Positions 4,809 to 48,924 of a stretch of DNA of 64,000 nucleotides are shown here, piece after piece. Both the position numbers and the translations under genes were made by a program. This DNA is from a virus, in IMG/VR virus record IMGVR_UViG_3300010885_049703, positions 32,001 to 96,000 of that record; one strand, written 5' to 3'. Numbering within the stretch: the stretch's first letter is position 1; every line of letters begins with the position of its first letter. Under the pieces are notes generated by a model. The model was given only the letters and a program-made list of their open reading frames with translations. It was not told the DNA's origin and searched no databases.

Positions 4809-6192
4809 AGGTGATGAATTAGTAGGAACCAAAAGCAAGTTTTTAACTTCTGCTGAGCAAATGAAAGAACAACTGGGACCTGCACGTTGCTATGCCAAGT
4901 GGCAGCAGGTTAGTCTGCATTTAACTACGGGCATGACCAACAGTTGCTATCATCCACCACTGCATGAAATAGATGCCACTTTACTGGCAGATAACCCTGG
5001 TGCATTACATAACACGCCGTATAAGAAAGAACAGCGTAAGATTATGTTGCGCAATGAACGTCCGGAGGAATGTAGTTATTGCTGGACACAAGAAGACATG
5101 GGCAACTTGTCAGACCGGCATTATCGTAGTGGAGAGCCTTGGGCTGATATAGATCTAACAAACTTAACCGGAGATGAAGATGTCATACCTACCTATGTGG
5201 AAGTTAATTTTAGTAATGTTTGCAATCTCAAGTGTAGCTATTGCAGCCCACAGTATAGTTCAACGTGGGCTGACGAAACTAACCGACATGGGGCCTATCC
5301 TACTAGAGTCCCTCATAATGAGCCGAGTCATTTTAACGGGCGTCGTAAGCCTATACCTGTTCGCGAAGATAACCCTTATGTAGAAGCATTCTGGCGTTGG
5401 TGGCCGCAGTTATATCCCAGACTAAAGCATTTTCGTATGACCGGTGGTGAACCATTGCTGGATAAAAACACATACCGGGTATTTGACTATGTGTTGGCAT
5501 TGCCCAAGATGGATCTGCACCTAAACGTTACATCAAATTTCAGTGTTGATTATCATGTGTTTTCACGGTATCTTGATTACGTCAAGAGATTATGCAATAC
5601 ACAAATTGAACATTTTATGCAGTATGTCAGCGTTGACACCGGTGATTGGATGCAAGCTGAATACATTAGACATGGCCTTGATATGAATTTGATGTTGAGT
5701 CATGTCAACAATTATCTTGATGAAGTGCCCAATCGCAGCAGCCTTACATTTATCATCACACTAAACAATCTCAGTGTAACAGGACTGGATCAACTGTTAG
5801 ATTATATTTTAGAACTACGTGCTAGATACAGTAAGACTTATCAACGTGTGTGGTTTGATACACCATTGCTGAGACAACCACGCTGGCAGAGTTTACAGAT
5901 ACTTCCTGTTGCATATCAACGACGCATAGAGCAACACATAGAATTCATGCGGCAGAATCTTATGCCTGAGGGTAGTTTTGTAGGATTCAAAGATTATGAA
6001 GTACAACGTATGCAACGTGCCTTGGATTGGATGCGCGAGCCACAGGATGCTGTAGAAGTAAACACCGCACGAGCAGACTTCTATCGCTTTTTTGGCGAAC
6101 ATGATCGCCGCCGTGGTACTAACTTCGTAGAAACTTTTCCAGAGATGACGACTTTTTGGCAGGAATGTGAATCACATGCTCGGCAATCGTAA
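4801..6192 (+). CDS. radical SAM protein with N-terminal twitch/SPASM-like Cys cluster
   Basis: CNLKCSYC, TGGEPLL; N-terminal C..CYH..CSYC. Confidence 0.85.
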   Translation: MNKGDELVGTKSKFLTSAEQMKEQLGPARCYAKWQQVSLHLTTGMTNSCYHPPLHEIDATLLADNPGALHNTPYKKEQRKIMLRNERPEECSYCWTQEDMGNLSDRHYRSGEPWADIDLTNLTGDEDVIPTYVEVNFSNVCNLKCSYCSPQYSSTWADETNRHGAYPTRVPHNEPSHFNGRRKPIPVREDNPYVEAFWRWWPQLYPRLKHFRMTGGEPLLDKNTYRVFDYVLALPKMDLHLNVTSNFSVDYHVFSRYLDYVKRLCNTQIEHFMQYVSVDTGDWMQAEYIRHGLDMNLMLSHVNNYLDEVPNRSSLTFIITLNNLSVTGLDQLLDYILELRARYSKTYQRVWFDTPLLRQPRWQSLQILPVAYQRRIEQHIEFMRQNLMPEGSFVGFKDYEVQRMQRALDWMREPQDAVEVNTARADFYRFFGEHDRRRGTNFVETFPEMTTFWQECESHARQS

Positions 6193-39110: not shown

Positions 39111-39265
39111 GAACCCTCCACTCTAAAACTTTTGAATTTAAAATCGTAACGCATGGTTCGTAGAACTCGTTCGCAGGCAGTGCGATCAGTGAACTCCAAC
39201 TCTATCCTTCCGGGTTGATCCGTTGGATCGTTTACGTGTACTGCTATCAATATCATCAACCACAT
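39089..39265 (-). CDS. small hypothetical protein (58 aa, hydrophobic N-terminus, two Cys)
   Basis: read from sequence: MWLMILIAVHVNDPTDQPGRIELEF..C..C; overlaps both neighbours. Confidence 0.5.
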   Translation of the reverse strand: MWLMILIAVHVNDPTDQPGRIELEFTDRTACERVLRTMRYDFKFKSFRVEGSCQQKQS

Positions 39266-40019
39266 CATCTCGCTCCTGTGTCCAAGTTATTATCTCCCAG
39301 CGACCGTTGTGATGTTCAACCAATGCTGTGCATGATTCAACCCAGTCACCGTCGTTCATGTAGACAACACCATCTATTTCTTTGATTTCTGCTTTGTGTA
39401 TGTGTCCACAGATTACACCATCGTAGCCACGCTTCTTGCAGTATGTTGCTAGGTTCTTTTCAAATTGAAAGACAAAATCAATCGCTTTCTTGACTCGACC
39501 TTTAAGATATAAGCTGAGACTCCAATAACCAAAGCCGAGCCGGTGACGAATCCAATTAAAGCGGGAATTAAGTGTGAGTATAAAATCATATGCTTTGTCT
39601 CCTAGTATAGATAGCCATGGTGCCAGTCTAGTGATACCATCAAACAAGTCACCGTGTGTGACTAGATAATGACGACCGTCGGCACCAATGTGTTCGCATT
39701 GATTGACTATTTCAAAGTTGCCAAACCCTATACCATACTGCATGAATGGTCTTAGGAACTCATCATGATTGCCAGCCACGTAAACGACTCGTGTTCCACG
39801 TTTGCTATAACCCAGCACACGGCGCACTACATTGGTATGACTTTGTTTCCACCGCCATTTGTTTTGTTTTATTTTCCAAGCATCAATAATGTCGCCTACA
39901 AGATACAATGTATCGCAGGTGGTGTGTTTGAGAAAATTGTTGAGCTGATCGGCCTTGCAATCTTTGGTGCCAAGGTGAACATCAGAAATGAATACACTGC
40001 GATATGTTTTTGTTGTCAT
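39186..40019 (-). CDS. PlcP-like metallophosphoesterase (phospholipase C; LpxH superfamily)
   Basis: FISDVHLG, LVGDIID, GNHDE, HGDLFD, CGHIH, NDGDWVESCTAL; co-oriented with the Agt-like GT4. Confidence 0.8.
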   Translation of the reverse strand: MTTKTYRSVFISDVHLGTKDCKADQLNNFLKHTTCDTLYLVGDIIDAWKIKQNKWRWKQSHTNVVRRVLGYSKRGTRVVYVAGNHDEFLRPFMQYGIGFGNFEIVNQCEHIGADGRHYLVTHGDLFDGITRLAPWLSILGDKAYDFILTLNSRFNWIRHRLGFGYWSLSLYLKGRVKKAIDFVFQFEKNLATYCKKRGYDGVICGHIHKAEIKEIDGVVYMNDGDWVESCTALVEHHNGRWEIITWTQERDDVVDDIDSSTRKRSNGSTRKDRVGVH

Positions 40020-40040: not shown

Positions 40041-40075
40041 TATTTAAGGTCATGTACATTACAGATACGTTACAT
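40041..40075 (-). promoter_or_regulatory. Pho-box-like promoter of the plcP-like operon
   Basis: ATGTAAC-GTAT-CTGTAAT, 11 nt, then TAAATA; same geometry as at pstS. Confidence 0.7.
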
Positions 40076-40078
40076 CAT

Positions 40079-40102
40079 GAAAAAGCCCGCCGAAGCGGGC
40101 TT
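40079..40102 (-). terminator. intrinsic terminator of the tmRNA gene
   Basis: AAGCCCGC-TTCG-GCGGGCTTTTT. Confidence 0.85.
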
Positions 40103-40405
40103 ACTATTTTGGGTTACAAGGCATAGTTGCCCCGGGGATTACGCTGCGAGAGCGAAAACCTCGTCGTTAGCTGCGTTTGCAGTTACTAGTTTGCTTGGAT
40201 TACGTCCATCGCCTGGCGTGTTGCCTTCTTTGCTATCTCACCCTGTCGAAGCCAGGTCTGGCCCATCAGAAACATACTTCGTCCTGCAGTACGGTCCTTT
40301 TCACAAAGAGTCGCACGGTCTGCAAATATGTTTCTGGTGGACCAGGTGGGAGTCGAACCCACGTCCAGAATGCCTTTACTCCAAAGGAATTACAACAATT
40401 CTTAA
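40103..40405 (-). ncRNA. ssrA: tmRNA, circularly permuted (two-piece)
   Basis: acceptor piece with T-arm ending CUGGUCC-ACCA at 40335 lies upstream of the coding piece starting GGGCCAG at 40264 (G3:U70 pair); tag ORF ANAANDEVFALAA* at 40180-40139; outer ends approximate. Confidence 0.92.
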
Positions 40406-40412
40406 TAGTCGC

Positions 40413-40835
40413 TTATTTATTTTGTGGTTGATAATCCACGTTGGGCATACTATACAATAGAAAATTGTGACTGACTGCATCAAATCTAATCTTGAACATG
40501 CAGACTCCCGGCTCGTCAAGGTAACCATAGCTGCGCTTTATGCCTCCACGTTTTAATCTATAAACGCAAAAATGATCAAGGTCTATCAACGGTTCACCGC
40601 CTAACTCAATCAGTTCCACAATCACTGCGCTGTCTGTGTCTGTTCTTTCTATTACTTCTACACCTACACTTGCAATAGTTGTGACATCATGAACAAAGTC
40701 AAATCGTACCAGGGCAGGCTCAACTTGTTGACTAGATACCGGGTCTCCCAATATCTGCCAACGTATGGCATTGCCTTTAGATCTGATGTATAACGAAAGA
40801 TTTCTTTGATTTCTTGGCTTCAATGTATTGTTCAT
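40413..40835 (-). CDS. hypothetical protein
   Basis: ORF downstream of the B12-type radical SAM; start uncertain. Confidence 0.5.
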   Translation of the reverse strand: MNNTLKPRNQRNLSLYIRSKGNAIRWQILGDPVSSQQVEPALVRFDFVHDVTTIASVGVEVIERTDTDSAVIVELIELGGEPLIDLDHFCVYRLKRGGIKRSYGYLDEPGVCMFKIRFDAVSHNFLLYSMPNVDYQPQNK

Positions 40836-47151: not shown

Positions 47152-47356
47152 ATGCTCTGCGTCCCGCGGCGGTAATTATACTGTGTCAGTAAACATGTCC
47201 TCTTTCAAGGGGAATACCTCTACAGCCTCCACCCGCTCCACGACCGGGACCGTTCTCGCATTGCCAGCGCCGTTTCGGTTGGAACGGTACCACCCGTGCT
47301 TGTCATAGCACTTCTCATCCTCCGGGTCAGAGTATCCAGTGACGCTGGAACGGCGC
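47152..47356 (-). ncRNA. unidentified GC-rich multi-pseudoknot RNA abutting the tRNA-Ser 3' end
   Basis: several long-range complementary segments (see findings); no credible CDS. Confidence 0.65.
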
Positions 47357-47444
47357 TGGCGGAGAGTATAGGATTCGAACCTATGCGCCACTTTCGCAAC
47401 GACAGTTTAGCAAACTGCTGCCTTGACCACTCGGCCAACTCTCC
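47357..47444 (-). tRNA. tRNA-Ser(GCU)
   Basis: long variable arm, loop TTGCTAA, encoded GCCA. Confidence 0.93.
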
Positions 47445-47565
47445 ATAAATCTAGTTGCTCTACCATATTGAAACACACTATACAACAGGTTTAGGTCTGC
47501 TTCTATATCCTGTCACGGCGTAGTATGAAGTTATCTCTAGACCTTGGCCGTAATGTGCTTTAATA

Positions 47566-47640
47566 TGGTACACGGTAGGGGAATCGAACCCCTCTTCCAT
47601 CCGTGAAAGGGATGTGTCCTAACCGATAGACGAACCGTGC
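47566..47640 (-). tRNA. tRNA-Glu(UUC)
   Basis: cloverleaf, loop CTTTCAC, encoded CCA. Confidence 0.93.
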
Positions 47641-47835
47641 ATAAAAAAGTGAAGGTTCCTATAAAGCCCATCGTCACCTACAACCATTGGGTAGTCGCCT
47701 ACCATCTGATTTAATGCTAACAAGGAACTGACTATTACATGATGCCGAAGTCACGTTACTGCATCAAACCCTTGCTGAACCCTTGCGGGACGATTCGCAC
47801 TCAATCGTTTTAATCTAGAACTGATACAAAAATAC

Positions 47836-48296: not shown

Positions 48297-48878
48297 TTAT
48301 GTGGCACCCACAGGTCCGTTACCGTTTTGAAAGCCAATTTTGCCACCTTCTGCTTCAATACGTTTGATCACGTCTTCAAACAGTATAGGCGCAAAGTCGG
48401 TTTGTTCTACGCAGACGCAATGGTAGCGAACATCAATTTTGTATTCGCCCCATACTTCGGTCATCACACGGTTTGAATGTAGATGTCCGTGTATGTTGGT
48501 ACCAAAGCGACCCAGACTCTCTGAGTGTATGGGAATATGGCTTAGTATCATTCCGTTCATCACATGGTATGCACGTAGTTCACGGAAGTATTTACGATAT
48601 TCGTCATCACGGAAGATGTCATGGTTACCACGTATCAACACCTTGTCACCGTTTAGACGAGCCATTGTAGCCAGTGCTCGGCGATTGATAACAACATCTC
48701 CAAGGTGGTAGACTTTGTCGTTGGGCCGGACACGTTCGTTCCAGGCCTTGACCATCGCCTCATCCATGTCCTCAGGTGTGTCCCAAGGACGTAGCTTGGT
48801 CACCCCGTCGTTGCGCATAAAACGGCAAACGCCTGCGTGTCCAAAATGCGTATCACTGACTAAAAATACTGCTGGCAT
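48297..48878 (-). CDS. calcineurin-like metallophosphoesterase
   Basis: SDTHFGH, HLGD, GNHD, SHIP, HGHLH. Confidence 0.9.
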   Translation of the reverse strand: MPAVFLVSDTHFGHAGVCRFMRNDGVTKLRPWDTPEDMDEAMVKAWNERVRPNDKVYHLGDVVINRRALATMARLNGDKVLIRGNHDIFRDDEYRKYFRELRAYHVMNGMILSHIPIHSESLGRFGTNIHGHLHSNRVMTEVWGEYKIDVRYHCVCVEQTDFAPILFEDVIKRIEAEGGKIGFQNGNGPVGAT

Positions 48879-48924
48879 AATGTGCTCCTGTTGCAATTTT
48901 AACAACTAATTTAACTATACTGCT

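Follow-up and report, generated by a model that had tools for sequence, protein, structure and literature searches.

Phage tRNA arrays are usually read as a supply of tRNAs for codon usage or against host defences, and the question raised by the locus described here is what else such an array may carry in the spacers between its tRNA genes. The stretch that we analysed (the window; 64,000 nt) is part of a 114-kb IMG/VR virus contig estimated to be 33% complete; the related complete genomes are 328-344 kb in length, and the contig therefore derives from a jumbo phage of about 340 kb when complete. Public sequencing runs labelled as lake or freshwater metagenomes contain 36-49% of the words sampled from the region. 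The minus strand of the window carries six tRNA genes and one permuted tmRNA gene (ARAGORN, Rfam), and the protein genes among these tRNAs encode an Hsp70, a radical-SAM protein, an S11 peptidase and two metallophosphoesterases. The tRNA-Glu(UUC) gene, with an encoded CCA (47566-47640; ARAGORN; Rfam tRNA, 54.5 bits), is followed in the same transcript orientation by tRNA-Ser(GCU) (47357-47444; ARAGORN, Rfam), and most of the 121-nt spacer between them is filled by a unit of 110 bases that consists of a long stem, which we call the stalk, and an enclosed cargo. Bases U72-A73-C74-C75-A76 of tRNA-Glu (47570-47566) are the first five bases of the stalk, and a 16-nt linker (47445-47460) leads from the unit to tRNA-Ser; all of these features, and those of the unit itself, lie on the minus strand.

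The region from 47300 to 47700 contains a single inverted repeat, with 20-nt arms at 47461-47480 and 47551-47570 that are 85% Watson-Crick complementary and are separated by 70 nt. An earlier note, made from this DNA by eye, had proposed a stem of 20 positions with one mismatch, and this is borne out: read as minus-strand RNA the stem has 17 Watson-Crick pairs, two G.U pairs and a single A.C, so that 19 of the 20 positions are paired. The 5' arm (UACCAUAUUAAAGCACAUUA, 47551-47570) matches the consensus of the stalk family described below without mismatch, and the 3' arm (UAGUGUGUUUCAAUAUGGUA, 47461-47480) with one; the arm motif occurs three times in the window against 0.45 times expected by chance. 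The spacer has a minimum free energy (MFE) of -33.3 kcal/mol (z -3.3), which none of 200 shuffled sequences equalled, and the predicted fold of a precursor running from tRNA-Glu through the spacer to tRNA-Ser retains both tRNA acceptor stems, the 20-bp stem (from A73) and two inner hairpins. The CCA of tRNA-Glu, which had been held to be sequestered, is paired in this predicted fold.

The cargo is well supported by folding and covariation as a 70-nt three-way junction, in which two hairpins stand one nucleotide apart and their large loops would be paired with each other. Hairpin 1 (47516-47550) pairs CGGC (47550-47547) with GCCG (47519-47516) around a 27-nt loop, and hairpin 2 (47485-47513) pairs ACAGG (47513-47509) with CCUGU (47489-47485) around a 19-nt loop. 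Within the first loop lie the 5' strands of two kissing helices, AGGUC of K1 (47544-47540) and CUUC of K2 (47530-47527), together with a conserved tract, AGAGAUAA (within 47516-47550), that was fixed by our search patterns; the second loop contains the partners GAAG of K2 (47503-47500) and GACCU of K1 (47497-47493). This loop pairing (5 bp AGGUC:GACCU plus 4 bp CUUC:GAAG) fixes about 20 conserved loop nucleotides in their arrangement. The hairpins had originally been drawn as ACGGC/GCCGU and ACAGG/CCUGU. The second is present as drawn, is kept in the precursor fold and is paired in 100% of homologues; of the first, CGGC/GCCG stands, and the outermost pair does not, A20 pairing with U91 in the outer stem and not with U56, a pair that covaries from A-U to G-C among the homologues. 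The proposed loop complementarity AGGUCU/AGACCU is conserved over 5 bp, its sixth pair (U32-A73) being found in only 11 of 27 homologues; CUUC/GAAG is present in the sequence as had been noted.

Homologues of the cargo were sought in three pattern scans, the second and third of which left both K1 strands free, and 27 distinct copies were recovered. A covariance model of the core, designated R1, was built from 24 copies using the nested helices only, with the kissing pairs excluded, and it aligned all 27 copies at 44-129 bits. The copy in the window, which is among the source sequences of the model, scores 126.9 bits (E 2.5e-29) and carries all of the R1 features: hairpins one nucleotide apart, the tracts AGAGAUAACUUCAU and GAUANAGAAGC, K1 and K2. 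Because our search patterns prescribed both loop tracts, their invariance is partly by design. In the alignment 93.8% of the cells hold a pair, compared with 78.1% in shuffled alignments, and 31 of the 39 pairs change on both sides; neither value was reached in any of 500 shuffles, and sliding the partners by one to three columns as a control left 33-46% paired. Changes on both sides are seen at all 20 pairs of the outer stem, at all four pairs of hairpin 1 and at four of the five of hairpin 2, both hairpins being 100% paired.

The kissing helix K1 varies in the same manner: columns 29/81 (25 G-C, one A-U), 30/80 (21 G-C, three U-A, two C-G, one A-U) and 31/79 (22 U-A, three G-C, one A-U, one C-G) contain zero unpaired cells. 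Most copies have the words GGUC:GACC, which are replaced by GUGC:GCAC in L240, L352 and L355, by GACC:GGUC in L354, by ACUC:GAGU in L361 and by GGAC:GUCC in L363. K2 (CUUC:GAAG) is invariant, in part because the search patterns fixed it. The compact three-way junction with kissing loops that the earlier note had described is therefore upheld by the homologue comparison that it suggested, the loop-loop pairing being conserved and covarying, and not lost, across the 27 copies. In the divergent copies L240, L352, L354, L355 and L361-L363 (L359/L361 is likewise a divergent core copy) the core sits on short unrelated closing stems of 8-11 bp that have no CCA, and it is therefore an entity of its own, which in this phage group is mounted on a shared stalk. 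Judged by the substitutions in the aligned copies, two nested sense-strand RNA structures are shown to be under selection. Rfam 15 (4227 families) has no match in 47445-47565 even at E<=1; for 13 array-rich relatives, the 150 best of its 196 matches are all to tRNA, tmRNA or group I intron. The literature that was searched yielded no paper with the arm or loop sequences and none that describes such stalks, and the reverse complement of loop 1 has no match beyond chance in the phage's own 114-kb contig.

The stalk belongs to a much larger family, whose consensus arms, CCAUAUUGAAGCACA (CCAUAUURAARCACA) and UGUGYUUYAAUAUGG, pair with each other. A scan of viral contigs for these arms around an interior of 20-50 nt found at least 120 contigs, and 287 distinct hairpins with stalk arms were counted across the retrieved loci of related phage tRNA arrays. 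Exactly at C74 of a tRNA begin 121 of these, and many finish at G1 or G2 of the next tRNA; the stalk in the window likewise has matching arms, a 5' arm running from C74 of tRNA-Glu, the orientation of the tRNAs and a place within the array. The remaining 166 lie behind no recognisable tRNA, yet are still initiated by CCA. About 11 of these follow tRNA-like 3' ends and the other ~140 begin with CCA without a T-loop upstream; in relative L017 a 184-nt segment between two stalks (5445-5628), not called as a tRNA, ends in a T-arm-like GGUUCGAGUCC followed by CCA. Some relatives have up to 11 stalks in tandem. In L164 (4646-5888) and L213 (7883-9385; both loci were reverse-complemented to give tRNA-sense coordinates) seven to eight stalks follow one another at distances of 2-180 nt, with hardly any tRNAs, or none, between them; here neighbouring stalks could also pair with each other, the 3' arm of the first with the 5' arm of the second. 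In five complete genomes good stalk matches occur in the tRNA arrays only, and the stalk pattern is phage-specific, with no occurrence in 185,579 prokaryote species genomes.

The stem is selected as RNA in the tRNA sense, because positions swap between Watson-Crick types and G.U exceeds A.C. The first is seen at positions 7 (262 U-A, 19 A-U, four G-C), 9 (263 A-U, ten G-C, seven C-G), 12 (252 C-G, 24 U-A, eight U-G) and 14 (243 C-G, 19 U-A, 23 U-G), and the second in 188 sense-strand G.U cells against 57 A.C cells, 38 of which are at a single position. That position is stalk position 8 (47561:47470 in the window), where 38 of 287 stalks have A.C and only two have G.U, the reverse of all other positions. 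In more than 250 of the 287 stalks the C-C-A of the arm is paired. The conservation of the arms exceeds what pairing needs, which suggests a sequence-specific factor, homogenization by recombination, or both. tRNAs without an insert are usually 5-9 nt apart and have no stalk; the stem therefore accompanies the insert and is not part of general tRNA processing.

The interiors, by contrast with this one CCA-starting stem, range from 29 nt to over 130 nt and fall into at least 168 clusters that are unrelated to one another; in one large group of lake jumbo phages the spacers carry a second layer of the tRNA array. Each of the 514 similarities between interiors keeps the same direction with respect to the tRNAs, and the same interior is seen behind different tRNAs. 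The notion that all cargos are structured was dropped, since the interiors overall are barely more stable than shuffled sequence (mean MFE z -0.29); a structured cargo is therefore shown for the kissing-loop family only. At least this one insert is a tightly conserved pseudoknotted RNA with covarying helices that include the tertiary K1, and the stalk may be a natural mark by which many further small RNAs can be discovered. The tandem stalks of some relatives also led us to consider a CRISPR array, which was rejected: the arms are inverted, the interiors of a single array can be as short as 29 nt or exceed 130 nt where CRISPR spacers would be of uniform length, and many of the stalks stand alone.

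The Glu-Ser junction has three states among the nearest relatives, in all of which tRNA-Ser is nearly identical. In the window the stem encloses the 70-nt interior; in L195 the same stem, followed by a 16-nt 3' linker identical to that of the window, encloses an unrelated interior of 33 nt; and in L018, the nearest relative (98% identity in the neighbouring phosphoesterase), the two tRNA genes are separated by a spacer of only 6 nt. In L017, the phosphoesterase of which is 100% identical, the unit is 99% identical to that of the window, the sole change repairing the A.C mismatch, and it is followed by a further stem that has these arms but a different interior. Five related genomes of at least 95% completeness lack the core, and the unit is accessory and dispensable. 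Seven copies of the cargo lie behind tRNA-Glu, two behind tRNA-Lys and one behind tRNA-Arg; in L220 (2482-2879) the core occupies the intervening (normally excised) segment of a permuted tmRNA gene, immediately behind the CCA that ends the acceptor piece, and other copies, such as L354 and L231, have no tRNA nearby. Among the 185,579 prokaryote species genomes the core is present only on L364, a 4.9-kb contig with 15 tRNAs, which is a fragment of a phage array mis-binned into a metagenome-assembled genome (MAG). The comparisons thus show, at the level of sequence, a modular unit that is swapped between spacers. The swap of cargo at one junction means that exchange via the arms does happen, and the shared arms, acting as recombination homology, would explain the swapping between tRNA spacers. 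Two clearly different tRNA-Glu(UUC) alleles are also present among these near-identical phages, one in the window and L019 and the other in L017, L018 and L195; the kissing-loop unit is found behind either allele, which is further evidence of module shuffling.

The reading that we prefer, at a probability of roughly 55%, is of a modular unit that would be transcribed together with the tRNAs and whose stalk would be cut by a host endonuclease, freeing the CCA end and releasing a small RNA, as the earlier note had proposed for tRNA processing; the loops of this RNA would bind a partner. The first candidate for this cut would be RNase III acting in the 20-bp helix, because the helix is about two turns long, is AU-rich and flanks an embedded RNA as in the rRNA operons, where RNase III cuts the leader-trailer helix (PMC10250234). 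With its one mismatch, the predicted stalk helix is of the length of an RNase III substrate (about two turns, ~20 bp of double-stranded RNA). No RNase III gene was found in the phage's own contig or in the five complete relatives, and a host enzyme is therefore assumed. RNase E prefers sites of the form RN|WUU. This enzyme would be the second candidate, acting at the AU-rich base beside the CCA, because CCAU|AUU fits that form and because RNase E removes the hairpin directly after the CCA of the Escherichia coli proline tRNAs in one endonucleolytic step (PMC5291269). The stalk resembles the rRNA helices in that the sequences on either side of an embedded RNA form a long helix, which would be the entry site for an endonuclease, and the proline tRNAs in that a hairpin abuts the CCA; it differs from both in being a predicted stalk of phage-specific sequence. 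Exonucleases would then trim tRNA-Glu back to its CCA and RNase P would free tRNA-Ser, while the cargo, on what is left of the stem, would persist as a stable small RNA, with the kissing helices fixing its conserved loops in place to bind the partner. Four lake metatranscriptome runs contain no contig over 47464-47557, in a comparison that covers contigs only, from which rare or short RNAs are dropped.

A bolder version, which we put forward only tentatively, is that the core represents a new class of functional RNA, catalytic or binding a protein or ligand and possibly serving counter-defence, and that the stalk is a dedicated sequence-specific module for excision and exchange. If this were true, jumbo-phage tRNA arrays would express and shuffle well over 100 families of small RNA. 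For phage biology the inserts are an accessory, shuffled RNA repertoire for which counter-defence is one possible role, and for RNA biology the core offers a small new fold in which catalysis, ligand or protein binding and oligomerization can be tested.

Several known RNAs were compared with the core and rejected. A hammerhead is excluded by junction strands of 0-1, 1-2 and 4 nt, by the lack of CUGANGA, GAAA and a UH site and by the lack of an Rfam match. An HDV-like or theta ribozyme needs a nested double pseudoknot in the order P1-P2-P3-P3'-P1'-P4-P4'-P2', where the order here is O-H1-K1-K2-H1'-H2-K2'-K1'-H2'-O', and its expected cleavage site is at its own 5' end abutting the tRNA, while the core starts 17-20 nt past the CCA. 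The purine riboswitch aptamer was set aside on its junction strands, which form the ligand pocket and are long (1-4 nt here), its short kissing loops (19-27 nt here) and the absence of an Rfam match, and twister-type and pRNA readings were ruled out on topology and motifs.

That the core is instead a new self-cleaving ribozyme, which cuts the tRNA trailer or frees itself in the manner of the HDV-like theta ribozymes, is a doubtful proposition, although there is precedent for it: theta ribozymes, found beside the tRNAs of gut phages, are likewise small pseudoknotted RNAs directly 3' of phage tRNAs and have been proposed to act on the 3' trailer (PMC10879173). A compact pseudoknotted core of about 75 nt with some 20 conserved loop nucleotides is typical of small ribozymes, and sites directly after the CCA ends of tRNAs and after the acceptor piece of a tmRNA are where cleavage is needed; speculatively, the array metallophosphoesterase at 48297-48905 could heal the 2',3'-cyclic phosphate end. 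However, no Rfam ribozyme model matches even at E<=1, the helix order is unlike that of HDV-like folds, the short junction strands (1-4 nt) are without a hammerhead core, and the core, whose 20-bp stalk here takes up the CCA, lies 17-20 nt from that CCA, with several copies (L354, L231) having no tRNA nearby at all.

The distribution of the unit could also be accounted for by a selfish DNA element of the MITE or REPIN type, with the arms as its terminal inverted repeats, in which case any folding of the RNA would be a side effect. There are indeed 20-nt terminal inverted repeats of strongly conserved sequence, presence/absence and cargo-swap polymorphism at one orthologous junction, and the same arm-plus-cargo unit behind different tRNAs in a patchy, accessory distribution; REPIN and Correia-type elements share with our unit the conserved inverted arms, the variable centre, the presence or absence between close relatives and, if the unit is transcribed as proposed, the transcription as hairpins. 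Such an element is nonetheless unlikely, since the orientation of the cargo is fixed with the tRNAs (514 to 0), the copies are limited to tRNA arrays (in the five complete genomes), the sense strand has an excess of G.U, and the covariation of the inner and kissing helices is inexplicable at the level of DNA. Moreover, the empty site is no clean target-site-duplication junction, and no Y1/RAYT transposase (Y1_Tnp) was found in the five genomes.

The pairing of the CCA and discriminator base in the predicted precursor, and of C-C-A in more than 250 of the 287 stalks, would also suit a regulatory lock, in which the paired CCA keeps tRNA-Glu unusable until a signal opens or removes the stalk and the cargo is the sensor. 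Purine-sensing aptamers are three-way junctions with kissing loops. The cargo shares this architecture, as it does with phi29 pRNA, in having two hairpin loops that pair by covarying Watson-Crick bases, but in these aptamers the loops are short and the conserved junction strands long, and the few junction nucleotides here would not make up a pocket of the purine type; nor is there a match to a riboswitch model. A lock is also at odds with the 166 of 287 stalks that follow no recognisable tRNA, and with a cargo that may follow tRNA-Glu, tRNA-Lys, tRNA-Arg or part of a tmRNA, or lie away from any tRNA, and we regard it as decidedly improbable. Finally, that the loops would pair in trans to build dimers or rings, like phi29 pRNA, the loops of which are also not self-complementary but complementary to each other (PMC4201828), is highly improbable, even though covariation is the same for cis and trans pairing and GOLLD and ROOL form multimers near phage tRNA islands (PMC12286853), because hairpins joined by a single nucleotide in one junction favour intramolecular pairing, and CUUC:GAAG is collinear with the first kissing helix. 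The pRNA gene, moreover, lies beside packaging genes, and its family has no Rfam match here.

The preferred reading, of a modular small RNA released from between the tRNAs, also has parallels in known stable RNAs. The RNAC and RNAD of phage T4 (species 1 and 2) are co-transcribed with, and processed out of, the tRNA cluster transcript. They too are non-tRNA stable RNAs in a phage tRNA cluster and are called RNAs of unknown function (PMC9697503), although T4 has two such RNAs and the stalk family has at least 168 different inserts. GOLLD and ROOL are likewise structured RNAs of phage tRNA arrays with no assigned function, partly from lake metagenomes and with key loop-loop contacts (PMC12286853), but they are of 580-800 nt or more and form cages, whereas the core is of about 75 nt on a shared stalk and matches them neither in sequence nor by model. 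Non-tRNA RNAs in tRNA operons are known as a general kind, while the fold and the shared CCA-initiated stalk with many unrelated inserts appear to be previously undescribed.

Other elements of these arrays were noted in passing. Directly after the CCA of tRNA-Ser in the window is a GC-rich non-coding element of about 205 nt (47152-47356, minus strand), which is conserved at other array positions in L017 (~5700-5900) and L019 (5413-5620), shows compensatory changes (CCGUU/AACGG versus CACUU/AAGUG) and has no Rfam match at E<=1. Whole contigs of 158-184 nt cover 47161-47344 of it with one or two differences in three lake metatranscriptome runs, and its sub-part 47228-47280 reaches a depth of 290-740. 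The two metallophosphoesterase genes within the array (48297-48905 and 39186-40019, both on the minus strand) are calcineurin-like; at least 599 stretches of viral contigs, most often amid tRNA genes, carry the first at 78-100% identity, and a role in RNA-end healing is conceivable. The permuted two-piece tmRNA gene (40048-40497, minus strand) encodes the tag ANAANDEVFALAA; its highest score, 154 bits, is with the betaproteobacterial model, a possible hint at the host group. Among the relatives, group I introns above the Rfam gathering score lie within the arrays of L200 (7381-7572 and 12747-12981) and L105 (13185-13378), L024 has a tRNA with the anticodon CUA (5744-5818; of the amber-suppressor type, called 'Pyl' by ARAGORN), and several have tRNA-Ile(UAU) calls of 91-92 nt.
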